58,180 nt of DNA, from NCBI GenBank assembly GCA_947305635.1, contig CAMZEG010000001.1, positions 1 to 58,180 of the forward strand, read 5' to 3'. This DNA comes from an uncultured Clostridia bacterium. Its GTDB lineage: Bacteria; Bacillota; Clostridia; Oscillospirales; Acutalibacteraceae. The translations under genes were made by a program, and so were the position numbers. This document shows positions 3,887 through 55,900 of the stretch, one piece after another (within the stretch, counting starts at the first letter, position 1; every line of letters begins with the position of its first letter). Under the pieces are notes generated by a model that searched no databases, was not told where the DNA came from, and saw nothing but the letters and a program-made list of their open reading frames with translations.

Positions 3887-5095
3887 ATGTTGTTGCAAAA
3901 GCTCATCGCCTGGCTGCTCGTCTTACGCCTCTTTTTTGCCGCTGGGTTTTTCCTGCCCGGCAACCGGCAGAACGCCGACGCGATTGCAAAGGACGAAACC
4001 GCGGCGGCCGGCTATGCGCTCACGCAGATTCTGCTGGAAAAGTGTTACGACCCGCTGCGCCACAACATGCACAAGCACACAGACGACAAGGGCCTGACCT
4101 ATGCCTGGGGCGCCGCTTCGTTTTTGGAAGCCATGGCGGACGCCTACCGCCTCTTCCCGGCCGATCTGCGGCTGCGGTATGACTACGCCGACGCGCTGAA
4201 GCGCTGCATGCCGCACTATCTGGCAAAGGACCAGACGATTGAAACGCCGTCCGGCCCGGTCTCCGATATCACCTATTACAACGCGTCGGCGGGCAACCGC
4301 GGCGATTATTACTACGACGACAACGCCTGGATCTGCATCCAGCTGCTGTTCGGCTACCGGAATCTCGGCGACGCGTCGCTGCTGGAGGCGGCAAAGCAGA
4401 ACCTCGCCTTTTTGTGGACCGGTTGGGACGACGTGCTGGGCGGCGGGATCTACTGGTCCGCTTCGTACGAAAGCAAAAACGCCTGCGCCAACGCGCCGAC
4501 CGCGATCGCGCATCTGCTGTATTATCAGATCACGGGCGAAGAAGCCTATCTGGAACGCGGAAAAGCGATTTACGATTGGATGAACGCGGCGCTGCGCGAA
4601 AACGATCTCTTTTCGGACGCGATCGCCGTTTCGGACGGCGGGATCAACCATTGGAAGGCCGCCTACAACCAGGCCACGATGATCTACGCGGGCAGCCTGC
4701 TGTATGAGATCACGGGCGACGCGCAGTACTACGACCTCACGAAGAAGACCGTCGACGCCTCCTTGCCGCTGATGTTTATCGAGACGGAAACCGAGGACGG
4801 CGGCACCGATATCACGATGCGCGAAAACCCGATCTATTCCGCGTGGTGCGTGGGCTGGCTGGTGCGCAGCTATGTGAAATTCTTTGAAGTCGACCCGCAG
4901 AAGGACACGGCGGCGATGGACCGCACCAACGCCGTGCTGCAAAAGGAGCTGGCGACGAAGGACGAAGACGGGCTGTACGACCCGTTCTTCTGCTCCGGCG
5001 GCGTCAACCCCGAAGCCTATACCAGTCTGCTCGCGCAGTCCGGCGTCGCGTGCACGCTGCTGAACGCCGCCTATTACAACGCGGTATTACAGTAA
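3887..5095 (+). CDS. Glycoside hydrolase family 76-like (alpha-1,6-mannanase-like), secreted
   Basis: Signal-peptide-like N-terminus. GH76-type motifs are YYYDDNAWI, GGIYW and NACANAP. ATG at 3887 lies 8 nt after GGAGG. Confidence 0.75.
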   Translation: MLLQKLIAWLLVLRLFFAAGFFLPGNRQNADAIAKDETAAAGYALTQILLEKCYDPLRHNMHKHTDDKGLTYAWGAASFLEAMADAYRLFPADLRLRYDYADALKRCMPHYLAKDQTIETPSGPVSDITYYNASAGNRGDYYYDDNAWICIQLLFGYRNLGDASLLEAAKQNLAFLWTGWDDVLGGGIYWSASYESKNACANAPTAIAHLLYYQITGEEAYLERGKAIYDWMNAALRENDLFSDAIAVSDGGINHWKAAYNQATMIYAGSLLYEITGDAQYYDLTKKTVDASLPLMFIETETEDGGTDITMRENPIYSAWCVGWLVRSYVKFFEVDPQKDTAAMDRTNAVLQKELATKDEDGLYDPFFCSGGVNPEAYTSLLAQSGVACTLLNAAYYNAVLQ

Positions 5096-7824: not shown

Positions 7825-9717
7825 TCAGGTGTTCTGCAGATAATAGATATAGCCGTAGATTGCAAACAGCGGCGGGAACTTTTCGACCAGATTGTTTGCC
7901 TTGATAAAGCCCTGCGGGATCTCTTCGTTCTCGGCGCCGACATGCCACAGATCGGGCGGCGCGTAGCGGATCAGATCCCGGTCAATCGCGGTGAGGTCCT
8001 CATAGGTGAACTCCTGCAATATGGTCACGCCCGCATCCAGCAGATCGCGGTACAGTTCCTCCTGCCTGTTTGCGCGGCAGGGATTCAGGTGGGAGAACTC
8101 CCCTTTTGCCGCGTTCGCCTTCCACCAGCGCCAGGAGAGCTCCGAGCGCTCGATATTGGCAAGCTGTGCTTCGTTGGCTTTCCTTTTGGCGAGCGCCCAG
8201 AGAAGATCGATCCGCGCGACGGTCGCCGAAACGATCGGGCGCATCGTCGCCCACGAGCTGTAAAGGAACGTCATGTGTCCGTCGAACGTGCCGGCATGGT
8301 CGGTAAACAGATCAATGATCTTGCGCATATACTTGCCGCCCGGGCCGTAATAGGCGTTCAGGAAGCCGTCGATCTCGGGATCGAGGTCGCGATAGGGGTC
8401 CTGCATGCACTTGGCGATCATGTAGGCGCGCAGTTCGCCGAATTCCGTGTCGCAGCTGTCAATGAAGTAGTTGCCCTCCGCGAAAACGCCCTTGACGTTG
8501 TTTTCATAGAAGATCTGCATATTCCGCTGAATGGCGCCGAAGTTCGGCATCACGGTGCAGGGGTGCAGATAGTGGGTCGTGTAATCCCAGATATAAAGGC
8601 GGTCGCAAATGGCGGACCACGCTTTCAGATCGTTGTAAAAGGTGCTGTTGCAGTCTGCGTCGAGCGGGTGCGCCATACAGCAGAAGATCGAGCACAGGCG
8701 CACGATCACGTTGTCGCGCGGGACGATGCCCGTGGGCGGCGTCTGGGAATAGAGATAGGCGAACGTATCGACGGCGACGTTTTCATAGCCGTTTTCCTTG
8801 ACGACGTCCGCGATCTGATTGACAAAGTTCAGTATCGTCGCCGACTGCACGCCGCCGTGCGCGGCTTCAAAGGCTTTGCAGGTTTCGCATTGACAGTATT
8901 CGCTGTTGTCGTTCTGCGTCAAGGAGACGATCTGCAACGGCGCCGACGGATCGTGCTTTTCGCGCAGAATCTGCAGCACGTTCTGCGTCGCGATCTCCAA
9001 AACGTCCGGATTCGTCAGGCAGGGCTGCTCCGTCGTCCGCGCGCCGTTATGCAGCGCGAGGTATTCCGGATGGGACTCGGCGTATTTTTCGCTTTCGCAA
9101 AGACCGCCCATTGTGTGGCAGAAGCCGCCGATATAGTCGACGCTGCCGCCCATTTCGGCGGGGATCGACCGGTAGGACCCGGCGGTCAGACCGTTCGCCA
9201 TCGAGTATTCGAGATTGCGCGGACTTCTCCAGTCGGTCTCGGTGTACTCGAAGAACGGTTCATAGACGATATCCGTATTGGCGGGGAAGCTGACGGACGC
9301 CGCCCGGGGCAGCACCGTGATGATTCCGGTGTAGACCTTGCGGTGGCAGAACTCCTCCAGAAAGCGGTAGGCCGCGATCTGCAGTCCGCGCTGGGCGGTA
9401 CCGTTGATATGCAGATTGCCGTCGATCGCCTGGATCCGGTAGCCGTTATCCGCGATAGCCGAGACGTCGGTTTCGGCAGCCGTGCCGACGGCGATGTACT
9501 TGCTTTGCGCCGCAGTGACGGTGCGGACCTCAGCGCCGAAGACCTCGCTGAGCGTGCTGCGCAGTTTTTCGGCAGCGAAGGATTCATAGCTTGTCGGCGC
9601 TTCGGGCGTCAGGATGACCCACGACGCGTCAACTGAAATGTTGTTTTTGGCAAACGCCAGCGGCGCCGCCGAGAGGAGCAGGCAGAATACCAGGATCACG
9701 CAGATGCTTTTTTTCAT
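7825..9717 (-). CDS. DUF4838 domain-containing secreted protein (glycosidase-like)
   Basis: 630 aa with signal peptide MKKSICVILVFCLLLSAAPLAFA and a perfect AAGGAGG RBS. Overall similarity to the DUF4838 family is recalled from memory. Confidence 0.7.
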   Translation of the reverse strand: MKKSICVILVFCLLLSAAPLAFAKNNISVDASWVILTPEAPTSYESFAAEKLRSTLSEVFGAEVRTVTAAQSKYIAVGTAAETDVSAIADNGYRIQAIDGNLHINGTAQRGLQIAAYRFLEEFCHRKVYTGIITVLPRAASVSFPANTDIVYEPFFEYTETDWRSPRNLEYSMANGLTAGSYRSIPAEMGGSVDYIGGFCHTMGGLCESEKYAESHPEYLALHNGARTTEQPCLTNPDVLEIATQNVLQILREKHDPSAPLQIVSLTQNDNSEYCQCETCKAFEAAHGGVQSATILNFVNQIADVVKENGYENVAVDTFAYLYSQTPPTGIVPRDNVIVRLCSIFCCMAHPLDADCNSTFYNDLKAWSAICDRLYIWDYTTHYLHPCTVMPNFGAIQRNMQIFYENNVKGVFAEGNYFIDSCDTEFGELRAYMIAKCMQDPYRDLDPEIDGFLNAYYGPGGKYMRKIIDLFTDHAGTFDGHMTFLYSSWATMRPIVSATVARIDLLWALAKRKANEAQLANIERSELSWRWWKANAAKGEFSHLNPCRANRQEELYRDLLDAGVTILQEFTYEDLTAIDRDLIRYAPPDLWHVGAENEEIPQGFIKANNLVEKFPPLFAIYGYIYYLQNT

Positions 9718-15265: not shown

Positions 15266-15329
15266 GATTCTAGCACTTGTCAAAGCCAAAATTCACGGTT
15301 CCAAAGAAACGGCCAAAGGAGAAATGAAA

Positions 15330-15849
15330 ATGAACACACGGGAAATCAAGCTGAAAATCCACGACGAATCGTAGCTCTTCTCTCCGTTGGACCCGGATCA
15401 GACGATGATCTCGGACGACGTCATCGACTATCTGTCTCGTGTCTTTCTCAACAAGCACAGACGGCTGCGCGAGTCTTTTTGTGATTCATATCATCAGTGA
15501 CGAACCGATGAATGAGGCGCATGTGAAAAACGCGATCCAAACGGAGTTCGACCGGCATAAGGACGATATCCGCCACGCGCTCAGACGGCTGATGCTCAAG
15601 CTGATCGTTCTGGCCGTACTCGGCGTCGCGATCCTCTGTCTCTGGCTGTACCTTTCGGCCACACGGGAAACCGTCGGCGTCGAAGTCCTGTCCATCATGG
15701 GCTGGGTCTGCGTCTGGGAAGCGACCAGTATCGCCGTTTTGCAGCGTCCCGAGCTTCGCCGCATGTGGCTGAACATTGAGCGGCTGACCCGGGCGGAGAT
15801 TCTCTTCCGGACGACAGAAGAGCAAAGTCAGGACACGCCGGCTGTCTGA
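15330..15849 (+). pseudogene. Disrupted two-TM membrane protein gene (in-frame TAG plus a +1 frame change)
   Basis: An AAGGAG RBS precedes MKMNTREIKLKIHDES-TAG(15372)-LFSPLDPDQTMISDDVIDYLSRVFLNKHRRLRES. The reading frame then continues in ORF 15439..15849 after a shift near the T5 run at 15476-15480. Confidence 0.5.
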
Positions 15850-43789: not shown

Positions 43790-44356
43790 ATGTTGACACC
43801 GGAACGAGCGAAAGAACTGAACGAGACGATGGTAACGGAAGAGTCCCTTTTGCTGCACGTCAAGAACGTATGCTACGCGATGGGCGCGATGGCGGAGCAC
43901 TTCGGCGAAGACCCGGAACACTGGCAGGCGATCGGGATGCTCCACGACTACGACTATGAGAAGTACCCCGAGGAGCACCTGCAGCACACGGCTGAGCCGC
44001 TGCGCGACGCGGGCGTTGCCGAGGAGGATATCCGCGCGATTCTCAGCCACGGCTACGGCGGCTGCACGGACGTGGAGCCCGTCACCAACCTGGAAAAGAG
44101 CCTGTTCACCGTGGACGAACTGACCGGGATCATTCAGGCGTGCGCGCGGATGCGGCCCAACGGGATCACCGACCTTGAGGTCAAGAGCTTTATGAAGAAG
44201 TTCAAGGACAAGCGCTTCGCCGCGAAGTGCGACCGCGCGCTGATATTGCAGGGCTGCGAAATGCTCGGGATGGAGCTGCGCGACGTGGCGGAGATCTGCA
44301 TCAAGGGCATGAAAGAACACGCCGAAGAACTGAACCTGCAGGGAACCGGAACGTAA
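43790..44356 (+). CDS. HD domain phosphohydrolase
   Basis: An HD dyad is present (GMLHDYDY), with later His residues. AAGGAGG RBS present. Confidence 0.8.
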   Translation: MLTPERAKELNETMVTEESLLLHVKNVCYAMGAMAEHFGEDPEHWQAIGMLHDYDYEKYPEEHLQHTAEPLRDAGVAEEDIRAILSHGYGGCTDVEPVTNLEKSLFTVDELTGIIQACARMRPNGITDLEVKSFMKKFKDKRFAAKCDRALILQGCEMLGMELRDVAEICIKGMKEHAEELNLQGTGT

Positions 44357-44377
44357 TACCAACTGAATAGACAACGA

Positions 44378-44404
44378 CAGCCCGCCGGGGATCCCGGCGG
44401 GCTG
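44378..44404. terminator. Bidirectional terminator
   Basis: cagcccgccggg gatc ccggcgggctg, followed by a T-rich tract. It lies between convergent genes. Confidence 0.65.
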
Positions 44405-44415
44405 ATTTCTTTATT

Positions 44416-46851
44416 TTACTTCCTGCGCTTGTACAGCATCACACCGATCAGTGCGGCGAGCATGATCACAAAGCAGATGCCGAACAGGATCAGATTGCTG
44501 CGCAAGGTCTCATTCGACGACTGATTCGGCATACCGGAAAACGAGGGCCGTGCACCGCTTTCCTTTGTCGTGTCATCCGACGCCGGTTCGCTTGTCCGCG
44601 GCGCTTCCGGTGCGGCCTCGGTCGCGTCTTCCGTCGTCGGTTCAGCGGTGCTCGCTTCGGTCGTTGTCTCCGGGGCTGCGTCCGGCGGCGTCATGCCGCC
44701 CATGTCGGGCATATTGCCGGGGTCAAAGTCGCCCATGTCCGGCATATTGCCCGGGTCAAAGCTGCCCATGTCGGGCATGTTGCCCGGGTCGAAGCTGCCC
44801 ATATCCGGCATGTTGCCCGGATCGAAGCCTTCCGGCGGATCGCCGGGGCTGAAGCCGCCCGGAAACCCGGACGAACCGCCCGGCTGAGCCGGCTGCGTGG
44901 TTTCCGGCGCGGCCGTTGTCACTTCGGTCGTGGGTTCGGTCGTCGGCTCGATCGTCGGCTCCGTCGTTTCTTCGGTCGCTGCCTCAGTCGACGGTTCGGT
45001 CGTTGCCTCGTCGGTCGTTTCGGTTGAATTCCGGCTGTTCGACCGACCGGAGCGCCGGTTCGGGCTGCCGTTCGAAAAGCCGCCCATGTTGAACTTGCCC
45101 ATGGCGGAAATATCGATGTGCGACGCGTCGATGAGCGCGGAATCGTCTTCCCGCTGACCGGCGTCGGTGGACGGGATCGTCCCGTTCAGCTGGCCGTCGA
45201 TGCTCTGCGCGCGCAGATTGACCACTTCATACAGGATCTCGACCGCGTTCAGATACTCGTCATAGGTGTACATCGCGTTCGGGTCGGTCTCCACAAGCGT
45301 ATCGATCTGCGAACGGATCCGGTTGTAGGTCTCTTCGAACCGGCCGCTGTTCACGTATTCATCCACAAGCTGCTGCAGATAGGCGTGGTAGCGCGCGAGG
45401 TATTCGTCATCCTCGAGCAGCGCGTTGAAGAACTGCGTGCCGGAGAACGGGGTGTCGATCGCGTCGTTGACCACGGACGTGCCATCGCCTCCGCTGCCCA
45501 TGGACATACCGCCGAGCGAAAGGTTGTAGTCCCACGGGAACAGGTTGAGCTGACCGTCGTATTCATATAGATAATAGTTGTGCGCCATGGAGCCGGAAAG
45601 GCTGTCCATATTGACCGAGAACACATGCACGGCCATATATTTCAGCACGTTGTCCACGTCGAGATAGGTCTCGAGGTCGGTGCCCTCGCTGATATTCTTC
45701 AGCGCGGTGACCACACGGCGCCGGTCGGCATTGCTCATGCCGGTGATCGCGCCGTCCCAGATGGTGGAATAGCTGTCGAGTTCGTCGTCGGTATAGTTCA
45801 GGTTCGCACCGCCGCCGCGGGAGAAGCCGCCGCGGGAGGAGCCGGACCTGGATTCACTCGTTTTCGTGCTGTCGTCAGACGCCGCGGCCTCGGTGGGCGC
45901 GGTGGTTTCCGTTGCGGGTTTCGTGGTTGCGTCGCCGCTGCCCGGGATATTGTTCGGATCGAAGCTGCCCATGTCCGGCATATTATTCGGATCGAAACTG
46001 CCGCCAGACGACGGTCTGCCGCTTTGCGACGCGCCTGTTTCGGCGTCGGCTGCGGCGGTCGTTCCTGCGCTGTCGTCCGCCTGTGCGGTGGTTTCACCGG
46101 CGTCGGATCTGCTGCCTTTTGACGGCGGGGTCTTGCCCGCGAACTGGGAGAAATCGACGTTGCCCATATCCGGCATGGAGGACCTGGACGAGCTGCTGCT
46201 GTTGCCGCCGCCCATTTCCATGCTGTCCGGCTTATACAGTTCGCCGTCCTGGGTGCCGAAATTGCGCAGCTGGAAGCTTTCTTCCACCGCTTCGAGCGCA
46301 AGATACACGCCCCAGTATTCGCCGTTGACGGTGACCTTCGCGTAGTTATACAGCGAAGCGTCCGCGCCGATGAACTGATACATATCGTAGATCAGCGCTT
46401 CCTTCATGTTGGTGGCGTCCGCGTAGTTGTTGTTGAGAATCAGCTTGTCGAGCCCGTAGCAGGTCTGGCCGTCCACAAAGTGGTCGAATTCCAGCTTGAG
46501 ACTGTAGCGGTTGTTGTCCGCGTCCATGGCAATCGCCGAAAGACTGGTGTTTCCCTTGGGACGGATGGCGACGTTCTTCACGCTTTTTCCGTTGATGACG
46601 ACGTCGCAAACATAGTACTCCTCCGTCATCGCGCCGGAAAGCATCTTGTTCCATTCGTCTTCCTCCATTTCAATGTCGACGCTGATGATCTCATCCGTGT
46701 TGAACAGCCTGGATTCGTATTCCATTTTGACGCCCGTGCCGCCGAGCAGAACCGAAAGCTCATCGGCGAACGCCATTGCAAGAAAACACAGGACGACTGC
46801 GACGGCCATGACCACAACGATCCCTTTTGTAAAATGCTTATTTGTAACCAT
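44416..46851 (-). CDS. CotH kinase family protein, extracytoplasmic, with a C-terminal TM anchor and low-complexity linkers
   Basis: Signal/anchor at the N-terminus. The CotH-like core includes RPKGNTS, YSLKLEFD, NYADATNMKEALIYD and GELYKPD. The C-terminus is LILFGICFVIMLAALIGVMLYKRRK. GGAGG RBS present. Confidence 0.85.
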   Translation of the reverse strand: MVTNKHFTKGIVVVMAVAVVLCFLAMAFADELSVLLGGTGVKMEYESRLFNTDEIISVDIEMEEDEWNKMLSGAMTEEYYVCDVVINGKSVKNVAIRPKGNTSLSAIAMDADNNRYSLKLEFDHFVDGQTCYGLDKLILNNNYADATNMKEALIYDMYQFIGADASLYNYAKVTVNGEYWGVYLALEAVEESFQLRNFGTQDGELYKPDSMEMGGGNSSSSSRSSMPDMGNVDFSQFAGKTPPSKGSRSDAGETTAQADDSAGTTAAADAETGASQSGRPSSGGSFDPNNMPDMGSFDPNNIPGSGDATTKPATETTAPTEAAASDDSTKTSESRSGSSRGGFSRGGGANLNYTDDELDSYSTIWDGAITGMSNADRRRVVTALKNISEGTDLETYLDVDNVLKYMAVHVFSVNMDSLSGSMAHNYYLYEYDGQLNLFPWDYNLSLGGMSMGSGGDGTSVVNDAIDTPFSGTQFFNALLEDDEYLARYHAYLQQLVDEYVNSGRFEETYNRIRSQIDTLVETDPNAMYTYDEYLNAVEILYEVVNLRAQSIDGQLNGTIPSTDAGQREDDSALIDASHIDISAMGKFNMGGFSNGSPNRRSGRSNSRNSTETTDEATTEPSTEAATEETTEPTIEPTTEPTTEVTTAAPETTQPAQPGGSSGFPGGFSPGDPPEGFDPGNMPDMGSFDPGNMPDMGSFDPGNMPDMGDFDPGNMPDMGGMTPPDAAPETTTEASTAEPTTEDATEAAPEAPRTSEPASDDTTKESGARPSFSGMPNQSSNETLRSNLILFGICFVIMLAALIGVMLYKRRK
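44698..44829 (-). repeat. Four tandem 33-nt coding repeats (FDPGNMPDMGS units) inside the CotH gene
   Basis: Four consecutive near-identical 33-nt units. A related pair, FDPNNMPDMGSFDPNNIPG, is encoded at about 45938-46002. Confidence 0.8.
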
Positions 46852-46864
46852 GACCTCCCCTCCC

Positions 46865-47536
46865 TCAGGACAGATAATCGCCGTTGTAGGTGACGAGCGT
46901 TGCGCCCGAGACGCCGGCCACGTCGTTGACGCGGTTGACAAAGTTCGTTTCGTCGTCTTTGACGCGGATCTCCGCGGTCACTTCGATGCCGTTACCACTG
47001 ACCGTCTTGGACTTGACGACAAACTTGTCGACGGACTTTTCAATGAGGTTCATGGCGCTCTCTTCCGCCTTTTCGTCGGCGCAGTTCACAATCAGGATAT
47101 ACGGGGTTCTGCGGCCCTTGCGGTTGGCGAAGAGCAGCAGGATGACGCCGATGATGGCGGAACCGATCACGGCAAGCGGGATCATGCCGGCGCCGATGAC
47201 GATTCCGACGGCAAGCGCCCAGAACAGGAAGACGATCTCCATCGGTTCCTTGATGGCGGCGCGGAAACGGACGATGGACAACGCACCGACCATGCCGAGG
47301 GAAAGCACGACGTTGGACGTGACCGCCATGATGACGAGCGTCGTGACAAGCGAGAGCCCGACCAGAGACATGGCAAAGCCGGTCGAATACATGACGCCGC
47401 TGAAGGATTTCTTATAGATCAGGAAGATGAACAGCCCGATCACAAGGGCGAATGCCAGACCGACGAGCGTGTCGACGGCGGAGAATTCTTTTACGCTTTC
47501 GAGAAAGCTGGATTTGAAAATGTCGCTGAATGTCAT
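46865..47536 (-). CDS. DUF4956 domain-containing membrane protein
   Basis: 223 aa with 4-5 TM segments. Motif LSLGMVGALSIVRFRAAIKEP. GGAGG RBS present. Confidence 0.8.
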   Translation of the reverse strand: MTFSDIFKSSFLESVKEFSAVDTLVGLAFALVIGLFIFLIYKKSFSGVMYSTGFAMSLVGLSLVTTLVIMAVTSNVVLSLGMVGALSIVRFRAAIKEPMEIVFLFWALAVGIVIGAGMIPLAVIGSAIIGVILLLFANRKGRRTPYILIVNCADEKAEESAMNLIEKSVDKFVVKSKTVSGNGIEVTAEIRVKDDETNFVNRVNDVAGVSGATLVTYNGDYLS

Positions 47537-47572
47537 TTGAGTATACCTCCATTATATAATCTAATTGATTGT

Positions 47573-48265
47573 TTAACCGTATCTGCGGCAGGCGCCGTAT
47601 TTGGAAAACGCCTGCTGCCGTATGCCGTCGGTCTGGATGATGTCCCGGATCACGTCCGGCAGAAAGGCGTCGTATTTGACCTCCAAAATCATGTCGTGCG
47701 GCGTGTCCGTCGCCGTGATGTCGGAGATCTCTTTGGTGAGAAAGTCCCGGCTGTACAAGCTGGTGCGGATCTGCATGTCAAACGTCACGCGGATGTTTCC
47801 GGCTTTGTAGAGATAGGGCTCGCGCAGGTAGGAAACCACCACGCGGGGCCGAAGCCGCTGAAAGCGCATCTTCGCGTACAGTTCGTGCACCAGCTTTTCC
47901 GGGTGTCCCGGCATCCAGCTGAGATCGCCGCCCAGCAGCCGCCGGCATTCCTCCTCGGTCAGCGGCGCTTCGTACTTGAGACAAAGAGAATCGATCTTCA
48001 TCTTCTTTTCGAGCCGGATAAAGGACAGGTCGTCGTTGTAATACCGGATGCGGAACTTCTCCCGCTTCTGAACGCCGTCGATCTTTTCCCGAAGCGCCTT
48101 GTCGTCGCTGTTGTCGAAGTAGATGCTGCGAATCAGGTACCTGCCGTCGGGGAGCGTGTGCGGGTCGACGGTCATGACCGCCTGCAGCCGCCGGCGCATC
48201 ATGAGGTAGTCGGTGTACGGAATCGCGAACTTGAGCTCATGGCGGTAATGCTTTTCCTGAACCAT
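47573..48265 (-). CDS. VTC-domain (CYTH/triphosphate-tunnel-like) polyphosphate polymerase domain protein
   Basis: YRHELKF..., IRSIYFDN and KREKFRIRYY are typical of bacterial VTC domain proteins. AAAGGAGG RBS present. Confidence 0.85.
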   Translation of the reverse strand: MVQEKHYRHELKFAIPYTDYLMMRRRLQAVMTVDPHTLPDGRYLIRSIYFDNSDDKALREKIDGVQKREKFRIRYYNDDLSFIRLEKKMKIDSLCLKYEAPLTEEECRRLLGGDLSWMPGHPEKLVHELYAKMRFQRLRPRVVVSYLREPYLYKAGNIRVTFDMQIRTSLYSRDFLTKEISDITATDTPHDMILEVKYDAFLPDVIRDIIQTDGIRQQAFSKYGACRRYG

Positions 48266-48296
48266 AGCTGCGTCCTCCTTTCGTTTTGCTGAGGCT

Positions 48297-48328
48297 ATTC
48301 TATTCTTGTCACTTGAAATGAACTTGAA
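48297..48328 (-). promoter_or_regulatory. Predicted response-regulator box A plus -10 element for the VTC-DUF4956-CotH operon
   Basis: Minus strand reads TTCAAGT-TCAT-TTCAAGT (11-bp phased direct repeat), then 8 nt, then TAGAAT. Confidence 0.6.
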
Positions 48329-48339
48329 GCGATTTTAGA

Positions 48340-48380
48340 AAAATAAAAAAAGAATCGGGAGACCGTAAACAGTCTCCCAC
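48340..48380 (-). terminator. Terminator after the histidine kinase gene
   Basis: gggagac..gtctccc hairpin, followed on the minus strand by a T-run. Confidence 0.6.
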
Positions 48381-48385
48381 ATTCC

Positions 48386-49645
48386 TTACATTGTTACTCT
48401 TATTGTCATGGTTTTGCCGCTTGGGCAGCTCGCCGTGATCGTGCCGCCGTGGGTTTCAGCAACAGCTTTCGCGATTGCGAGGCCGACGCCCGTACCACCC
48501 GTCTGGGTCGCGCGGGAAGCGTCCGGCCGGTAGAACCGGTCGAACAGCCGGTCAACGTCAGGCGGCTCCTCGAGCTGGCAGGTGTTGAACACCTCGATAC
48601 GCACCTTGCCGCGCTTGCGGTGCAGCGAAAAGCGGATCTCGGCGTTCTCGTCCGAGTATTTGATCGCGTTATCCAGAAGCACGGAAAGCATCTGCTGTAC
48701 CGCGGCCTTTTCGCCGAGCATGGTCACGTCGTCCTGGATATCGACGGTCAGGTTCTTGCCGCTGCCCTTCGCCTGCGGCTGATAGACTTCGAGAATCTCC
48801 CACGCCGCGTTGCTGACGGAGAAAAGCTCCTTGTTCGGCAGCGGAAGCTCTTCGTCCAGCCGCGAGAGCGTCACAAGCTCGCTGACGAGCTTCGTCATGC
48901 GGCCGGTCTGGTTGCGGATGTTGTCCGTCCATTCGTCTTCGCCGTGCTCCAGCTCGATCACGTCCACGCTCGTGGAAATCGACGTCAGCGGCGTCTTGAG
49001 TTCGTGGCTCGCGTCGGTGATAAACTGCTTTTGCCGCTCGATGTTATGTGCGATCGGCTTGATCGCCTTGCCGCTCAAAAGCACGACCAGCACGAAGACC
49101 AGCAGCAGACTGACGCCGGAAACGGCGATCGTCAAGATCCGCAGCGACCGCATATATTGCAGATCGCGGCTCACGTTCAAAAAGAGGACGACCGTTTCGC
49201 CGTCTTTCTCCTCCACAACGTAGCGGTACTCCTTCAGATAGCCGCGGTCGCTCTTGCGCGAGAGCGCCTGCTGCGCGTACTGCACGGCGTCGGTTTCGTC
49301 TACGGACGCGATGAAGTCCGTGGAGGTCGAGGTGACTGTCCCTTCCGCGTCGAACCGCACGAAGAAGAAGCGCGTCATATAGTTCGCTTCCACGTCGGGG
49401 AAATCCGTGATCGGCGCCGGGGGTCTGCCGTCCCGTTCGCCTGGGCCGCCGTTGGTTTCATCACGCGGCGGGGGCGCCCGGTCGGCGCGCGACTCAAAGG
49501 CCATCACACTGGACAGCGTCTGGTCTGCGTTGTCTGTCACAACGTAATAGTCGACGACATTCACGAGCACCGCAATCAGCGCAACAACCGCAAAGAAGGC
49601 CGCCATCGCCGCGGCGATCAGACGCCAGCGCATCTTTTTCAGCAT
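48386..49645 (-). CDS. Sensor histidine kinase (two TM segments, extracytoplasmic loop, HisKA and HATPase domains)
   Basis: H-box FITDASHELKTPL, N-box LLDNAIKY, and G-boxes GGTGVGLAIAK. Confidence 0.9.
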   Translation of the reverse strand: MLKKMRWRLIAAAMAAFFAVVALIAVLVNVVDYYVVTDNADQTLSSVMAFESRADRAPPPRDETNGGPGERDGRPPAPITDFPDVEANYMTRFFFVRFDAEGTVTSTSTDFIASVDETDAVQYAQQALSRKSDRGYLKEYRYVVEEKDGETVVLFLNVSRDLQYMRSLRILTIAVSGVSLLLVFVLVVLLSGKAIKPIAHNIERQKQFITDASHELKTPLTSISTSVDVIELEHGEDEWTDNIRNQTGRMTKLVSELVTLSRLDEELPLPNKELFSVSNAAWEILEVYQPQAKGSGKNLTVDIQDDVTMLGEKAAVQQMLSVLLDNAIKYSDENAEIRFSLHRKRGKVRIEVFNTCQLEEPPDVDRLFDRFYRPDASRATQTGGTGVGLAIAKAVAETHGGTITASCPSGKTMTIRVTM

Positions 49646-50316
49646 CCGACCACCTCCAGCGCGTACCCCGCGCCGCGGATCGTCTTGATCTCCACGTCGG
49701 CGTTGAGATTGCGCATCTTCCGGCGGACAAAGCCGATGTGCGTCCAGACGACGTTGATGTCGGATTCCGTTTCGTAGCCCCAGATCTTATCCATCAGGTG
49801 CTCCGTTGAAAAGACATAGCCCGGATGCTGCATGAACAGCTCCATCAGCTGGTATTCCTTGTTGGTCAGGCTGACGCTCTCGTCGCCGACCCGCATCTCG
49901 TAGCGGTTGCCGTCGAGTTCCAGATTGCCGACCTTTTTCAGCGATTCCGCATAGCTTTCGCTGCGTCGGGCAAGCGCCTTGATCCGCGCGATCAGCTCCT
50001 GCGTCGCGAACGGTTTCGGCAGATAGTCGTCGGCGCCGGCGTTCAGCCCCGCGACACGGTCTTCGACCTCCGCCTTCGCGGTCAAAAGCAGCACAGGCGT
50101 CGGAATCCGGTTTTGCCGGATCAGGGAAAGCACCTTCAGCCCGCTCATGCCGGGCATCATGATGTCGAGTACGATCACTTCATAGGAACCTGCCTGAATG
50201 TAGTCCCAGGCGTCGATCCCGTTATGTACGATGTCGACGGAATACTTTGCTTTTTCAAGCAGGAGCTTGATCGCCTTTGCCGTCGAGACTTCGTCTTCTG
50301 CGATTAATATACGCAT
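49639..50316 (-). CDS. OmpR/PhoB-family response regulator
   Basis: MRILIAEDE.., receiver Asp in VLDIMMPG, and a winged-helix C-terminus ending ..IRGAGYALE. AAGGAGG RBS present. It overlaps the HK start by 7 nt. Confidence 0.92.
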   Translation of the reverse strand: MRILIAEDEVSTAKAIKLLLEKAKYSVDIVHNGIDAWDYIQAGSYEVIVLDIMMPGMSGLKVLSLIRQNRIPTPVLLLTAKAEVEDRVAGLNAGADDYLPKPFATQELIARIKALARRSESYAESLKKVGNLELDGNRYEMRVGDESVSLTNKEYQLMELFMQHPGYVFSTEHLMDKIWGYETESDINVVWTHIGFVRRKMRNLNADVEIKTIRGAGYALEVVGC

Positions 50317-50338
50317 GGTATCCCCTCCTTTTGATTGT

Positions 50339-50370
50339 ATTATAAAAGTGAAACCTGAATTGAACCTGAA
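50339..50370 (-). promoter_or_regulatory. Predicted response-regulator box B plus -10 element (autoregulation of RR-HK)
   Basis: Minus strand reads TTCAGGT-TCAA-TTCAGGT, then 8 nt, then TATAAT. Confidence 0.6.
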
Positions 50371-50461
50371 AAAGGTAAAACAATTTTCAAAGGGAAACGG
50401 CACCGGAAGCCGAAGCCGCCGATGCCGTTCGAAAAAAGGAGAGGAGAGAGGTAAATCTGAG

Positions 50462-52021
50462 TTATCCGATGCCGAACAGGTTGCGGAAGAACGCGATGAT
50501 GCGCTGGAAGAAGCTCCGGATACCGTTCAGAAAGTTCGAGCCGAAGCCGCCGCCCTGACCGGGCTGCTGCCCGCCGGGACCTCCGGGGCCGCCCTGATTG
50601 CCGGAAGATGTGGTAGCGGTGGAGGAACGGGCGTTGGATTCGCCGTTATAGACGCTGTAGAGCGTGCCGCTTTGCACGGCGGGCGACGTGAACACAACGT
50701 AGCTCGCGTTGCGCGGCGCGGCGGATTTTGCCGTATAGACCACGTTGTTGCTGTCGTCTCTGATTGAGATCTTGTTGCCTGCGGTCACGATATTCGAGCT
50801 GACGCCGCCGATCATCCCGCCGAACATACCGCCGCCGGAACCGCCGAACGTGACATAGGTGCCGATATAGCTTTGCTGCATCATGGCGTGGCCGACCGCG
50901 AGCACCGTCGCGCCGCTGAAGGTGCAGCCGTATTCGGTATCGATCGGGTCGCCGTCGCCCTGCGCGGGTGCGTAGACCTCGAGCGTGCCGCCGGAAAGCG
51001 TGGCGCTGCCGTTGGAATCGATGCCGTCGCCGTTCGTCACGTTGATATAGACGTAGCCGCCGTATTGGTTATAGGTAAACTGTTCGCTGCGTTCGGAAAT
51101 GTCTCCGTTCGCCGCGTTGATGCCGTCGTCCGTGGCGTTCACGGTGACGTTGCCGGAATAGACGTTGACGGTGGAAGCTTCGATGCCCTCCGCCGCTTTG
51201 GCGACATTGATCGTCGGACCTGCCGTGCCCTGTTCGCCGATATTGAGCACAAAGTCGCTCTTGATGCCGTCGTCGATCGCGTTGACGGTGATGTTGCCCG
51301 AAAGGATGTTGAGTGTCGCTTCCGCCTTGATCGCGTCGGTATCGGTCACATGGTTCGTCACGGTGATGGTCGCTTCCTTGATCGTCAGGACGGACGTTTC
51401 GTCAAAGGTCGGCACGGTGCCGTCGCCCTGGTCGGCACTGCCCTTGATGCCGGTCTTGCCGTAGGCGTTCACAACCAGCGTACCCGTGCCGCAGATCGTC
51501 ACGTTGGAGCCCGCCTTGGTCTTGATGACCGCGTTTTCGGCGGAGCCGCCGTGCGCATCGTCGTCGGTGTTGGCCGGGTACAGCTCGTCGTTGTTGTACT
51601 TGCTGTCGGTCAGGGTGTTGGTCGTACCTGCAGCCACGACGATTGTGACGCCGGTGCTCTTGTTGCAAAGCAGCGGAGCGGTGTTTTCCGTCACGGTCTC
51701 GCTCGAAGACGTCAGCGTCAGACCGTTCAGGACAAGTACCACGTCGGTCGTCCCCTTCTTGACCTTGATCGAGCCGTTGGTGCAACTGCCGGAGACAACG
51801 TAGGTGCCCGCGGCATTGATTGTCAGCGCGGTGCCGGTGATCTTGTAGCCGGTGTAGTCGCCCGCCGTCACGGCGATGCCGCTGTCGGAGAAGACGAAGC
51901 GCGTTGCGCCCGTCAGGTCATAGTCGTCCGCCGCGAAAGACAGCAGTGCGGTCGCCGAGAGCGCGAGCAGCAGCGTGAGCAGGACGGCTATCGCTTTTTG
52001 GAGTGTGCGTGTTTGTTTCAT
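50462..52021 (-). CDS. Cthe_2159-family carbohydrate-binding beta-helix protein, secreted
   Basis: Signal peptide, then ITGTALTINAAGTYVVSGS.., repeated ..ITVNA.DDGI.. turns, a Gly/Gln-rich linker and the C-terminal tail FFQRIIAFFRNLFGIG. AGGAGG RBS present. Confidence 0.75.
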   Translation of the reverse strand: MKQTRTLQKAIAVLLTLLLALSATALLSFAADDYDLTGATRFVFSDSGIAVTAGDYTGYKITGTALTINAAGTYVVSGSCTNGSIKVKKGTTDVVLVLNGLTLTSSSETVTENTAPLLCNKSTGVTIVVAAGTTNTLTDSKYNNDELYPANTDDDAHGGSAENAVIKTKAGSNVTICGTGTLVVNAYGKTGIKGSADQGDGTVPTFDETSVLTIKEATITVTNHVTDTDAIKAEATLNILSGNITVNAIDDGIKSDFVLNIGEQGTAGPTINVAKAAEGIEASTVNVYSGNVTVNATDDGINAANGDISERSEQFTYNQYGGYVYINVTNGDGIDSNGSATLSGGTLEVYAPAQGDGDPIDTEYGCTFSGATVLAVGHAMMQQSYIGTYVTFGGSGGGMFGGMIGGVSSNIVTAGNKISIRDDSNNVVYTAKSAAPRNASYVVFTSPAVQSGTLYSVYNGESNARSSTATTSSGNQGGPGGPGGQQPGQGGGFGSNFLNGIRSFFQRIIAFFRNLFGIG

Positions 52022-52072
52022 GGGTATTCCTCCTAAAAGATACAGGATCGGGTTTTCGTTCTTTCTGTCTCT

Positions 52073-52104
52073 ATTTTGCAATCGGAAGCTGAAATGAAGT
52101 TGAA
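52073..52104 (-). promoter_or_regulatory. Predicted response-regulator box C plus -10-like element for the Cthe_2159-family gene
   Basis: Minus strand reads TTCAACT-TCAT-TTCAGCT, then 8 nt, then CAAAAT. Confidence 0.5.
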
Positions 52105-52188
52105 AAAAGAAAAAATATTTTCAGTTTTTGTCATCCACTGATCTGTTGCGCCGCAATGCCTCGACCATGCGGCCCTTTTATAAATAAC

Positions 52189-52224
52189 ACAAACGTCCAT
52201 GAGACTACTCTCATGGACGTTTGT
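52189..52224. terminator. Perfect 16-bp-stem hairpin (insulating terminator or element-end structure)
   Basis: acaaacgtccatgaga ctac tctcatggacgtttgt. On the minus strand a T-rich GTTATTTAT follows. Confidence 0.4.
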
Positions 52225-52360
52225 CTGGTGCGATTGTTCTTAAGGGATTTTCAAAACTATACAATTTGGCTTTCGACAGCGAACATACACTTACCCTCAA
52301 ATCCAACCATGAAAAACTTAAATTTCCCAAAACAAATGGTACAACACGGAGGTTAGTGCT

Positions 52361-52711
52361 ATGAATATGAATAATACTCACTGCGATAGTTTTAACAACC
52401 CAAACTTGGTTTGTTCTGAACAAGAACACCCACCCCTCGGCAAGTACGGCAGGATGCGCCGAACATACCTCAAAGAAAACTTCCCCGCAAAATACAACTG
52501 GATGGTCTGGCAGGACGCCCTTTGGCCGCATCTGCATCAAATCGACGCCAAAGCCGACGAACTGTTCAGAACGATTGTTGGTCAGATGGCGAAAGCCCGT
52601 GGCGTCAACGAACAGCTCAAGGCGGACGATCAATGGCGCTGGATTCAGGAGATGGGAAACATCCGCAACGTGGCGGAAGAAATCGTGCTGCGGGATGTGG
52701 TGTGCGCATGA
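52361..52711 (+). CDS. tnpV: TnpV-family protein (accessory protein of Tn4451-type mobile elements), orphan
   Basis: 116 aa. LGKYGRMRRTYLKENFP...QMAKARGVNEQLKADDQWRWIQEMGNIRNVAEEIVL matches my recollection of TnpV. The local region is lower in GC. GGAGG RBS present. Confidence 0.65.
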   Translation: MNMNNTHCDSFNNPNLVCSEQEHPPLGKYGRMRRTYLKENFPAKYNWMVWQDALWPHLHQIDAKADELFRTIVGQMAKARGVNEQLKADDQWRWIQEMGNIRNVAEEIVLRDVVCA

Positions 52712-52775
52712 ATAACCAGCCATCTGCTGATTGCAAGTACTATTATCATAATTATTAAAAGCACTTCATCATACC

Positions 52776-52813
52776 AAAACGCAATCGTCTGGCAACCGGC
52801 GGTTGCGTTTTTT
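52776..52813 (+). terminator. Terminator after tnpV
   Basis: aaaacgcaa...ttgcgtttt stem followed by a T-run. Confidence 0.55.
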
Positions 52814-52844
52814 ACTGTGTACTTTCTTATGTATTTATGAAAGA

Positions 52845-52889
52845 TCGACAAACAAAAGGTGTCTCCCCCCGACCGAAGCCGGGGGGAGA
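52845..52889 (-). terminator. Terminator after the 1160-aa surface protein gene
   Basis: 10-bp stem tctccccccg/cggggggaga. On the minus strand CACCTTTTGTTTG follows. Confidence 0.6.
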
Positions 52890-52922
52890 AACAAGAGGAG
52901 ATTGAGATGAGGAACGATCGAG

Positions 52923-55900
52923 TTAGAAGAGGTTGCGGAAGAAGTTCAGAATCCGGTCAAAGAAGCCGCGGATGGTTCTGATGATGCGCTGGAAGAAGTT
53001 TTCGCTCTTCTTGCCGATCACACTGCCGGTTGCGATCTTTGCGCCGCAGCCCTTGCAGTAGGTGTCGCCGGTGTAGCCTTCTTCTTCCGTTGTGGCTTCC
53101 TTCGCGCCGCGGACTTCCGTGCCGCCCTGATGGTTGTTCGCGTTGATCGGCGTTGCGCTGCCGGTTGCGATCTTTTCGCCGCAGCCTTTGCAGTAGGTGT
53201 CGCCGCTGTAGCCCTGTGCATGGCAGTTCGCCGTCACAGCGCCGCGGACTTCCGTGCCGCCGGAGTGGGTCGTGCTCTTCGGCGTTGCGCTGCCGTCTGC
53301 AATTTTGGTGTTGCAGCCGAGGCACCACGTGTCGCCGGTGTAGCCGCCGTGGGCGCAGGTCGCGTCCACTTTGCCGCGCACTTCCGTGCCGCCCGTATGG
53401 TTCGTCGGATCCTTTTCGCCTTCCGCGGCTTTTTCAATCACAAGGCCGCAGTCTTCGCAGACTTTGCCTTCGCTCTTGGCGGGCGTAGTACAGCTGCCCT
53501 CAACTGCCGGAGAAACGGCCACGTTCGCATGTGCGCAGGCAAGCGTCTTCAGAATGTCGGATTCCTTCAGCAGTCTGCAGGCGACCGGAATGAGATCTGC
53601 CTTGCGGTTATTGATGCTGACCATGTTGCGCGCCGCGATGCCCTGATCGCTTTCGGCGCCGGTAAAGGTCTGCTGAACGGTTTCAGACGCCGGATAAAGC
53701 TCTGTCTGAACCGTATCGGGGAAGAAGGCGTCCACAATGTAATCGGAAGCATTGATCAGCGCCTTGGTCACGGGCACGCCGCCCGCAATGGCGTCTTCCT
53801 TCACTTCAAAGTAGGCAAGCAAGTCGCCGAAATCACCGTCGGCTGCCTTTGTGAAGAGCGCTTCGTTCATATCAACAAGACCGGTGTAATTCGAGAACAT
53901 GGAGTTCATCGGCAGAACCGCATCCGCGATCTTGCTCACCTTCAGGAGCGCACTGTCAGAAGCGGCGGGAGCAACCGGATAAAGGATCAGCCCGTCGGTC
54001 AGATCCAGGAAGCGATCCGCCAGAGCGCCGAGGGTGGCTTCCCAGTTCGCGCCCTTGCTGACGGCCAGCTTAAAGTTCGCGTCGCCGATCTGCAGATCGA
54101 AGTCTTCGTTCAGCGCTGCGATCACTTTGTTGATTGCCGCGTTGATCTTCGGCACCGCAAAGTCTGCGGCTTCATAGAGGATGTCAACGACCTTGTCCAT
54201 CACAGCATCCTGTGCGCTGATCGTGCCGGCGTCAACCGCCGCAGCGTCAATGGCTGTATATGTGTAATCCCAGCCGTCGATGTCAACCTTGGCAAGCAGC
54301 TTGGAGAGGATCATATCCACCGCGGTGGCGATGATGGCGTCCAGCGTGTCAAGGTCTTCCACACGCATATGGAAGTCATAGAAGATGCTGTCCTCGTCGT
54401 CTTCGGCAAGCAGGTCGCAGGCGATGCGGATGCCGCAGTCCAGCGCATTTTCAACGGAAGAGAAGTCCATATCATAGACCATGCCGGCGTTGAAGCCGTG
54501 GGCGGAAGCGAACACATTGCTGATGCCGGCAGTTTCGGCAAGGGCAACGAAGGTGTCGCGGTCGATGTACTGCTTCATCGTATCGAACAGGCCGGAGACC
54601 TTGTTGCAGATCTTCTGAAGGTTGCTGTAAAGGTTGGAGTTGTCGCCATCCACAAGGTCAAGATCAGCCATGCCGGCGTCGGAAGCGATCATGTCCACAA
54701 GACCGTAAAGGATGTGGTTGGCCTGGCCGACAACGCCCTTGTATGCGTCATAGTTTGCCGAAACGTCAAGCAGTGTGTCGTCATATTCCGCTTCGGTGTC
54801 GATATAGCCGACCAGCTTCTTGACCTGTTCCAGTTCTTCGATCACGCCGTCCAGACCGTTCATCACGATTGTCACAAACGCGGGGTCTTCCAGCATGCTG
54901 GGATTGCCGAGGGCGGTCTTGATGGTGTCAATGACCATCTGGTCAGCATCAATGCCAAAGGACTTCGCAAGATTGATCATGGAGGCGGCGGAGCCCCAGT
55001 CCACCACGGTTGCATCCGGATTCAGCAGATCAACGTCTGCAGTCGCAGCAATCGGCGCCGTAATGTTCACCTTTGCGGTGGCGCTTTCCACTTTTGCCTG
55101 AACAGCAAAGGAATCGGTATCCTGATACGCCTTGTAGGAGAAGGTCGCGTCTGCATCGGAAATACTGAACGCGACAGAGACGTTTCCTGCGCTGAAGTTT
55201 GCGCCTTTTCCGTTGATTCTTGTAACCAGTTCGTTCTTGACTGCGTTTTCAACATCGTCCAGCTTGATGTCAAGATCAAGCAGCTGCGTGTCGCCCATCG
55301 CCGCTTTGGCAATGAAGTGCTTACCCCACGCTTCGCCGACGCCGCCCACAAGCGCCTGATCTTCGGCGGACATTTCGGAATTCTTTTTCACTTCGACGCC
55401 GATCTCTTCGTCAGCATACTGATCCAGCATATCCTTTGCCTGATCGTTTGCATAGATGGTCGGCATATAGTCTTCGGCGTTCGGACTCGACGGATGATAA
55501 GTGGCATAAACCGGATTGTTTTCATGCCCGATCGTCAGCGCCGGAGGATCGATGTTCACACCTGCCGTGATAACCTGGACCATGCCCTGCAATGCTTTCA
55601 GGAAACCTTCCAGCAGATCGTCAAACTGGCCTTTATAATCGTTTTGCAGCAGTCTGACATAGTCCTTCACCAGCGTGTAGACATCGGTGGTTTTCAGGTT
55701 GAACGCATCGTAAGCGGTTTTGGATGCTTCCGTTTTGAGGAGATCCTTGAGCACCGGTGCGAGCGCAGCCTTGATGCCGTTGTTCAGCGTGTCGTCAAAG
55801 ATTTCGCCGTCAGGGATCTCATAGCCCATTTCGCGGGCGATCTCGCTGACAAATTTTTCCTGAATGTTGTTCCCGATCAGATAATCGTCATAGAAATCGC

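Follow-up and report, generated by a model that had tools for sequence, protein, structure and literature searches.

A stretch of 58,180 bp from an uncultured Clostridia bacterium (contig CAMZEG010000001.1; hereafter, the window), whose source material is bovine rumen, carries three near-identical direct repeats, each of them 8 nt upstream of a −10 hexamer. On the minus strand, these repeats (boxes) precede an operon for a VTC protein, a DUF4956 protein and a CotH-family protein, a gene pair for an OmpR/PhoB-family response regulator (RR) and a sensor histidine kinase (HK), and a gene of the Cthe_2159 family. The question is whether a single regulator, encoded within the same locus, commands the three units. 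Our sequence comparisons indicate that the boxes are probably operators of the local RR, which would activate the RR-HK, VTC-DUF4956-CotH and Cthe_2159 units.

Three boxes without a −35 element

The boxes and their associated −10 hexamers, with scores from a position weight matrix (PWM), are as follows.

Box 1: 48311..48328, minus strand; TTCAAGT-TCAT-TTCAAGT, candidate operator 5' of the VTC operon; PWM score, 24.9 bits
−10 of box 1: 48297..48302, minus strand; TAGAAT, 8 nt (gacaagaa) past box 1; predicted +1, A at 48290
Box 2: 50353..50370, minus strand; TTCAGGT-TCAA-TTCAGGT, candidate autoregulatory operator 5' of RR-HK; PWM score, 22.9 bits
−10 of box 2: 50339..50344, minus strand; TATAAT, 8 nt (ttcacttt) past box 2; predicted +1, A at 50332
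Box 3: 52087..52104, minus strand; TTCAACT-TCAT-TTCAGCT, candidate operator 5' of the Cthe_2159-family gene; PWM score, 18.6 bits
−10 of box 3: 52073..52078, minus strand; CAAAAT, 8 nt (tccgattg) past box 3; predicted +1, A at 52066

The first-pass annotation of the window had described these three minus-strand sites with their 8-nt gap to a −10, and its coordinates and letters proved to be exact. All three boxes conform to the consensus TTCAnnT-TCAn-TTCAnnT, of 18 bp in a 7+4+7 layout with a period of 11 nt, which is also that of the related loci. The corresponding pattern, TTCANNTTCANTTCANNT, has exactly three matches on both strands of the 58,180 bp, where 0.01 are expected, and none of 100 shuffled windows reached this number; allowing two mismatches retrieved just three further weak matches. 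Likewise, with a PWM trained externally, on other genomes only, the next-best position in the window scored 12.7 bits and had no −10. The weak pattern matches, at 179 and 15317-15355, are probable noise, with at most 12.7 bits and no −10; those at 15317-15355 (minus strand) correspond to TTCAGCTTGATTTCCCGT and TTCATTTTCATTTCTCCT, which are 21 nt apart and lack a −10 at 8 nt.

A sigma-70 scan did not identify a −35/−10 pair at any of the three boxes, in line with the previous proposal that the boxes replace a canonical −35, and these promoters therefore look activator-dependent. We also evaluated, and rejected, the box itself as a −35 element: the distal half-site would leave a spacer of 20 nt and the proximal one a spacer of 9 nt, while the position at 17 nt reads A(A/G)GTTC, with about one match in six to TTGACA. 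The expected A at +1 is present at all three sites. Apart from the box, the −10 and a 'CA' where transcription is expected to start, the three promoters have nothing in common, which excludes their origin by segmental or promoter duplication. Additionally, positions 44000-53000 did not show a match to any RNA family in Rfam (E ≤ 0.1), so that there is no known leader or riboswitch as a competing explanation.

RRs of the OmpR/PhoB family bind tandem direct repeats, spaced by about one helical turn, at or near the −35 position, and a phosphorylated dimer (RR~P) bound near −30 of a promoter without a −35 recruits RNA polymerase. We thus propose that a signal perceived at the ~125-aa external loop of the HK would lead to phosphorylation of the RR, and that a head-to-tail dimer of RR~P would occupy the two half-sites of 7 bp, 11 bp (one helical turn) apart. 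The box would cover ca. −38 to −21 of a promoter with a −10 and no −35; because it takes the place of the missing −35 at a fixed gap from the −10, the bound dimer would recruit RNA polymerase (class II activation), with transcription starting at the A located 7 nt past each −10. The predicted output is positive autoregulation of RR-HK together with induction of VTC-DUF4956-CotH, as the core, and of Cthe_2159, as a lineage-specific accessory. What the sequences show is the anatomy of the sites, their non-random occurrence, conservation and fixed geometry, the synteny with the RR, and the co-variation of recognition helix and half-site. From these we infer that the RR binds, how its dimer is oriented, that it activates instead of repressing, and where transcription starts.

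The boxes of the VTC and RR promoters in other genomes

An alignment of VTC yielded 80 loci from reference genomes and metagenome-assembled genomes, mostly of rumen and gut Lachnospiraceae, with some labelled Oscillospiraceae, and including the cultured Butyrivibrio hungatei (L013). The order VTC-DUF4956-CotH is the same in about 75 of these 80 loci. Refinement of a PWM with the 220-nt region 5' of each VTC gene from these loci led to TTCAGGTTCATTTCAGGT, and the VTC promoter contains a box above the 99th percentile of the background in 57 of the 80 genomes, with VTC identities of 59–74%. Scanning 2.0 Mb of locus sequence on both strands at a threshold of at least 17 bits retrieved 68 matches, of which ca. 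57 are located before VTC and ca. 6 before RR genes.

We then analysed the −10, the spacer and the +1 in 55 non-redundant promoters anchored on the box, i.e. in columns that had not been used for selection. The motif TAnnnT appears at an invariant 8 nt from the VTC box, with 1.5–1.9 bits in each of columns T27, A28 and T32; the 8-nt spacer is unconserved (ca. 0.1 bit per position), and A is enriched 7 nt past the −10, at +39, which is the expected +1. A conserved extended −10 is absent from the three window promoters. Together, the comparative evidence shows that the boxes are functional, as far as this can be read from sequence, and the box predicted 5' of the VTC operon has an orthologous counterpart, with the same 8-nt gap to TAnnnT, in most of these diverged genomes. 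The closest relative, L081 (80%), retains a box at the RR promoter as well as at the VTC promoter, in either case 8 nt from TATAAT or TAGAAT.

Other VTC promoters show variations of this arrangement. L082 and L083 both contain close VTC relatives, of 77% identity; the former is preceded (8900-9000) by repeats of another sequence, TTCACAATTTGTTCACA and TTTAGTCTGGATTAAGTCTG, and the latter (4348-4365) by the box TTCAGATATTTTTAAGAT, followed by 8 nt and TAAGAT. In the clades comprising L021-L080 there is a second pair, TTCA-N7-TCACA, at −23 to −8 relative to the VTC box (e.g. L061 6845-6869 and L073 6916-6940), which is present in 15/28 non-redundant promoters from other clades vs 2/21 from the window-like clade; together with the VTC box, it makes up four half-sites spaced 11, 12 and 11 nt. 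This pair resembles the TT(A/T/C)ACA repeats of Bacillus PhoP, and may thus accommodate a second RR dimer or act as a distinct input of the Pho type. Locus L018 (10027-10400) contains an extra box, TTCAGGTTGATTTTAGGT, of 24.3 bits and 8 nt from CATAAT, situated just past CotH and not followed by any open reading frame (ORF); there are tandem repeats of ca. 100 nt (TTCCCGTTACTTGTACAGTTCTATAGCGGTAC...) downstream of it, and the box may be the promoter of a non-coding RNA or a remnant.

The RR promoters were examined for a composite consisting of a PWM score of at least 8 bits, exactly 8 nt, and then [TCG]AnnnT. This composite occurs in 15/43 RR promoters vs 0.6% of random 150-nt windows, an enrichment of ca. 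55-fold, and it is commoner in divergent (9/15) than in co-directional (6/28) layouts. The RR box of the window is the strongest of all those seen in RR promoters. With an RR promoter that is boxed in the window, L081 and 15/43 loci, autoregulation appears to be real but optional: its initial proposal is borne out by the enrichment over background, although extending to only about one third of the lineages.

The probable regulator and its targets

The window encodes a single OmpR-type RR (gene at 49639-50316), which has NVVWTHIGFVRRKM as its recognition helix. In most of the 80 loci, an RR-HK pair homologous to that of the window adjoins the VTC operon, either co-directional or divergent. We aligned 65 RRs from VTC loci over their C-terminal domains and classed their recognition helices, which can be set beside the boxes of the adjacent promoters as follows.

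Helix VVWTHIGFVRKK (window type): RR 73–85% identical to that of the window; box TTCAGGT-TCAT-TTCAGGT
Helix VVWTYIGFLRKK: RR 55–67% identical; box TTyAAGT-ACAT-TTCrGGA
Helix VVWVHISNLRKK: RR 44–48% identical; TTTAGGC or TTTAGTG repeats
Helix NVEVYMSFARKK: RR 42% identical; box TTCAATC-N4-TTCAATC

The four recognition-helix classes match four half-site classes, a correspondence that is correlative. This co-variation, together with synteny, argues for binding by the linked RR rather than by an unlinked paralog, and so favours the view, already put forward in the first-pass annotation, that the boxes form a regulon of the local OmpR-type RR.

The pho box of PhoB from E. coli and the core region of PhoP from B. 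subtilis consist of two 7-bp direct repeats with a 4-bp gap, at ca. 10 nt from the −10. The window boxes share with them the 7+4+7 layout, the 11-bp period and the position in lieu of the −35, close to the −10 and at a constant distance from it. Moreover, the RR is of the same winged-helix OmpR/PhoB family, which binds as a tandem dimer in the Pho systems, as we propose here; positive RR-HK autoregulation is common in such systems; and the VTC promoters with four phased half-sites from other clades resemble the Bacillus PhoP core region. However, the half-sites of the window (TTCAAGT, TTCAGGT, TTCAACT and TTCAGCT) differ from CTGTCAT (PhoB) and TT(A/T/C)ACA (PhoP), and only the extra upstream pair of other clades resembles TTCACA. 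The −10 follows at 8 nt instead of ca. 10, the HK is a simple sensor with an external loop between two transmembrane (TM) helices and not of the PhoR layout, and the targets seen here do not include phosphate-transport or phosphatase genes. The RR also falls below the cut-offs for PhoB equivalogs, with 190.5 bits vs 296.2 for TIGR02154 and 137 vs 471 for NF007546. The boxes are thus pho-box-like in architecture, as had been suggested, without the RR being an ortholog of PhoB or PhoP.

A second comparison is with streptococcal CiaR, whose activating box TTTAAG-N5-TTTAAG lies 10 nt from the −10 in promoters without a −35 (PMC3091779). Both are direct repeats with hexamers at an 11-bp period and both have envelope or surface targets; additionally, a variant box from other clades, TTTAAGTACATTTCAGGA, reads TTTAAG-N5-TTCAGG, with the hexamer 9 nt from the −10. 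The recognition helix is, however, VVWTHIGFVRRKM here vs VVEVYVSKVRKKL in CiaR, positions 3 and 5-6 of the window half-site are C and GG, respectively, and the targets are VTC-DUF4956-CotH instead of htrA and the cia-dependent small RNAs (csRNAs). The window system does not fit into CiaRH, because its helix is not VVEVYVSK(V/I)RKKL and its box is of the TTCAGG type, 9 nt from the hexamer, vs (N)TTAAG-N5-TTTAAG at 10 nt.

The best match of the RR in PDB, over the full length, is DrrD from Thermotoga maritima (1kgs; E = 6e-43), with which it shares the OmpR/PhoB fold and domain order, and the best match in NCBIfam is RppA, with 234 bits, under the equivalog cut-off of 250; neither match brings shared information on operator or targets. 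We did not find an ortholog of the window RR among the named RR families in NCBIfam and PDB. The locus displays the attributes of a class II box system, namely an RR with receiver and Trans_reg_C domains paired with a HisKA kinase, 7+4+7 repeats and replacement of the −35. Judging from these comparisons, the RR works like those of the PhoB, PhoP and CiaR systems but belongs to none of them.

Several observations weigh against activation of all three units by the local RR. Since VTC promoters served to refine the PWM, its box columns are ascertained, although those of the −10, the spacer and the +1 are not. About two thirds of the RR promoters do not contain a box. Eight rumen metatranscriptome assemblies on the B. 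hungatei locus had a depth of 2–10x, and their contigs broke at strain variants or spanned intergenic regions, with no callable 5' ends; for the window, the RNA runs retrieved were solely host poly-A libraries matched by species label. Among the three window sites, box 3 scores lowest with the PWM, and its CAAAAT is a weak −10, missing the first T. In the 80 loci, tblastn (E ≤ 1e-3) did not detect any Cthe_2159 homolog up to 7 kb from VTC, and in another locus, L090, VTC-DUF4956-CotH directly follows Cthe_2159 but lacks its own box. The boxed VTC operons of L082 and L083 have no adjacent two-component system (TCS), which suggests that their VTC might be under an unlinked or different RR. Finally, among the matches listed, many TTCA-N7-TTCA boxes, often from non-gut environments, appear beside unrelated OmpR-type RRs, of 33–40% identity; this class of motif is thus common to other OmpR regulators and is not, alone, diagnostic of this one, and cross-talk with, or use by, another paralog is possible.

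The observations on box 3 could mean that function is restricted to boxes 1 and 2, box 3 being fortuitous or decaying and the Cthe_2159 gene being outside the regulon. The absence of homologs from the VTC loci indicates that Cthe_2159 is not a core target, and we followed the protein through its own homologs instead of through VTC loci. An ortholog of 89% identity, in L087, conserves the box (18/18) and CAAAAT; the gene is not adjacent to a TCS and no RR follows it. This is the sole close ortholog with an identical box and, at 89%, there has been little divergence time, although the immediate 5' flank of the box has changed. Orthologs of 75% identity in L085 and L086 occupy an unrelated neighbourhood and have four in-phase half-sites (TTCAGTC, TTCAGTG, TTCAGCA and TTAAGTT) that end 8 nt before TATACT; L085 also has the same 'gacA' at +1. 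In more distant relatives, the gene is found beside TCS pairs (L088 and L089, 61%) or in the order RR-HK-489aa-Cthe_2159-VTC-DUF4956-CotH (L090, 59%), and in these three loci TTCAATC-N4-TTCAATC, 8 nt, and GATAAT or TACAAT precede each of the RR, ~489-aa and Cthe_2159 genes. Likewise, among the matches listed, L099, L145 and L154 contain distant Cthe_2159-family genes with TTCAGCT boxes in the 7-4-7 layout, 8 nt from the −10. These boxed genes in other contexts suggest that the Cthe_2159 family has been repeatedly wired to OmpR-type direct-repeat boxes, and that the box travels with the gene. Considering also that the score of box 3, although the lowest, is well over the window background of at most 12.7 bits, we find it unlikely that this box is a chance or decaying site. 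The beta-helix gene had been assigned to the regulon from the beginning; its box is kept in relocated orthologs but is not conserved across the VTC clade, and the gene would be a lineage-specific accessory target.

In L090 (4230-9710) and L088/L089 (1690-8001), the RR is 42% identical to that of the window and has the helix NVEVYMSFARKK, and the ~489-aa gene encodes a Pro-rich, lipoprotein-like product.

It could also be that the boxes are real operators bound by another, unlinked OmpR-family RR, for instance one of the PhoP/PhoB type responding to phosphate starvation, with the adjacent TCS as a mere neighbour or co-regulator. The polyphosphate-polymerase-like domain of VTC and the established 7+4+7 layout of Pho boxes would agree with this, as would the extra TTCA-N7-TCACA pair of other clades, the boxed VTC operons without an adjacent TCS and the TTCA-type boxes beside other OmpR RRs. 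Nevertheless, the half-site follows the recognition helix of the adjacent RR over four classes, the promoter of this RR is itself boxed in the window, L081 and 15/43 loci, and the synteny of RR-HK with VTC is strong; the TTCAGGT boxes of the window are unlike the half-sites of PhoB (CTGTCAT) and PhoP (TTHACA), and the local RR remains under the PhoB cut-off (190 < 296 bits). We thus consider an unlinked binder to be very unlikely.

If the local RR is the binder, it might act as a repressor that blocks RNA polymerase at the −35 region until a signal releases it. A protein bound over ca. −38 to −21 could indeed occlude the polymerase, and several OmpR-family RRs are established repressors at some promoters, but the lack of both a −35 and a conserved extended −10 leaves no means for activator-independent initiation. 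Besides, the fixed 8-nt phasing in 55 promoters is what contact between an activator and the polymerase needs, and occlusion does not, and the geometry is like that of the activators PhoB and CiaR, so that we deem repression highly improbable. That the repeats are chance occurrences or leftovers of duplicated promoters, without a regulatory role, has a negligible probability even though the three sites served, post hoc, to define the pattern, given the 0.01 matches expected, a PWM from other genomes that sets the three sites apart from the rest of the window, the 57/80 genomes that keep the box in fixed geometry, and promoters with nothing in common outside the box, −10 and +1.

The surface cassette and other boxed genes

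Activation by the local RR would affect the following genes, which are listed with the terminators that delimit them.

CotH-family kinase-like surface protein: 44416..46851, minus strand; Pfam PF08757, E = 1.9e-59
DUF4956 protein: 46865..47536, minus strand; polytopic membrane protein with several TM-like segments; Pfam PF16316
VTC protein: 47573..48265, minus strand, ATG at 48265; polyphosphate-polymerase-like domain, first gene of the operon; Pfam PF09359, E = 2.7e-38
Sensor HK: 48386..49645, minus strand; HisKA and HATPase_c domains, two TM helices around a ~125-aa extracytoplasmic loop
OmpR/PhoB-family RR: 49639..50316, minus strand, ATG at 50316; receiver and winged-helix domains; PF00072, E = 4e-31, and PF00486, E = 1.6e-22
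Cthe_2159-family gene: 50462..52021, minus strand, ATG at 52021; predicted secreted beta-helix carbohydrate-binding protein with an N-terminal signal peptide; Pfam PF14262, E = 4.9e-32
Terminator: 44378..44404, no strand assigned; end of the VTC-DUF4956-CotH operon, 12-pair hairpin with 11 G-C
Terminator: 48356..48379, minus strand; after HK and directly upstream of box 1, 10-pair stem and T-run
Terminator-like hairpin: 50396..50429, minus strand; between the Cthe_2159 gene and box 2, −25.9 kcal/mol, z = −3.75
Terminator: 52189..52224, minus strand; just upstream of box 3, 16-pair stem

A terminator thus appears ahead of each box, indicating that the boxes head three separate transcription units. 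The VTC, DUF4956 and CotH genes are contiguous and co-directional, with gaps of 36 and 13 nt and a terminator after CotH; the HK and RR genes overlap by 7 nt, and AAGGAGG precedes the ATG of the RR at 50316. The mechanically called ORF of CotH extends from a TTG at 46941 and overlaps DUF4956, and translation likely begins at the ATG at 46851, with a signal anchor (MVTNKHF...). The protein is anchored in the membrane at its N- and C-termini, and has a Thr/Pro/Glu-rich stalk that contains, in the C-terminal region, four FDPGNMPDMG repeats before the TM anchor. VTC does not have any TM segment and is cytoplasmic; all the other target products are membrane, surface or secreted proteins, which, together with the external loop of the HK, suggests that the output is an envelope or surface programme.

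The polyphosphate polymerase-DUF4956-CotH set has been described as conserved accessory genes by Gram-positive pel loci in Streptococci, Clostridia and Bifidobacteria (10.1101/768473), and VTC, 'tubulin-like' and CotH genes also occur in NELoc-2 of C. perfringens (PMC2879425). These are the same three genes as in the window, where the cassette differs in not being beside pel genes and in being linked to a dedicated TCS with a defined box. Neither of these two works describes a regulator or operator of the cassette, and the searchable literature did not contain any description of its regulation. The mechanism is very probably an ordinary, textbook one, and the novelty is its description for the VTC-DUF4956-CotH system. 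The box and the dedicated HK provide an experimental handle on a widespread and uncharacterised cassette, which reaches Clostridia, streptococci and bifidobacteria, including Pel exopolysaccharide loci and the C. perfringens necrotic-enteritis locus. They also offer clean natural examples of co-evolution between OmpR-family recognition helices and half-sites and of regulon turnover around a conserved core.

More tentatively, and with considerable doubt, this might be a dedicated and widely distributed TCS of gut and rumen Clostridia that induces a surface module made up of the cytoplasmic VTC enzyme, its membrane partner DUF4956 and an externally anchored CotH kinase, in which signal-induced synthesis and export of polyphosphate, or of another phosphoryl donor, would serve for extracellular phosphorylation of proteins or glycans. 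Lineage-specific surface partners, such as the Cthe_2159 binder or an ABC transporter, would be added in a modular way by acquiring a box, and many clades would receive a second, Pho-like input through the upstream TTCACA pair.

We also searched metagenome contigs for the box followed by 8 nt and nAnnnT, which is not a full census of the regulon; this search retrieved at least 120 stretches, many of them from unrelated environments. Among the matches listed, 10/18 exact-consensus boxes are upstream of VTC homologs, which supports the link between the box and VTC, and in L121, L135 and L175 a box precedes an ABC-transporter ATPase gene, as it does in L054. In L121, L135 and L175, the ATPase gene is directly downstream of an RR-HK pair 57–61% identical to that of the window. 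These comparisons suggest a plastic regulon with a VTC-DUF4956-CotH core, in which the RR-HK box, Cthe_2159 and, in other lineages, the ABC transporter would be accessory.

The ABC-transporter boxes (L054 5903-5920, minus strand; L121 3587-3618; L135 7702-7733, minus strand; and L175) are located right after the HK terminator, 8 nt from the −10, and the ATPase protein (MIQVSHLTKYYGDF...) recurs as an alternative accessory target for this family of TCSs. On environmental contigs, TTCAGCT boxes precede genes for a family of ca. 530 aa (MHDIEQKPSQDD...) and cytochrome-b561-like genes. One common gut organism, with a GC content of ca. 0.58, is represented by L091, L096, L098, L102, L105 and ca. 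15 more metagenome loci among the matches listed; its box is identical to box 3 of the window (TTCAACTTCATTTCAGCT), continues with ttaggtcg CAACTT, and is separated by a few hundred nt from an RR of the OmpR type with just ca. 35% identity to that of the window. Lastly, L081 (2749-6845) contains a second OmpR-type TCS followed by a gene for a trypsin/PDZ (HtrA-like) protease, which is preceded by repeats of the TTTAAG/TTTAGG type, TTTAAGTTTCATTTAGGA and TTTAACTATATTTTAGCG (boxes at 5045-5085), in an arrangement reminiscent of the streptococcal CiaRH-htrA.

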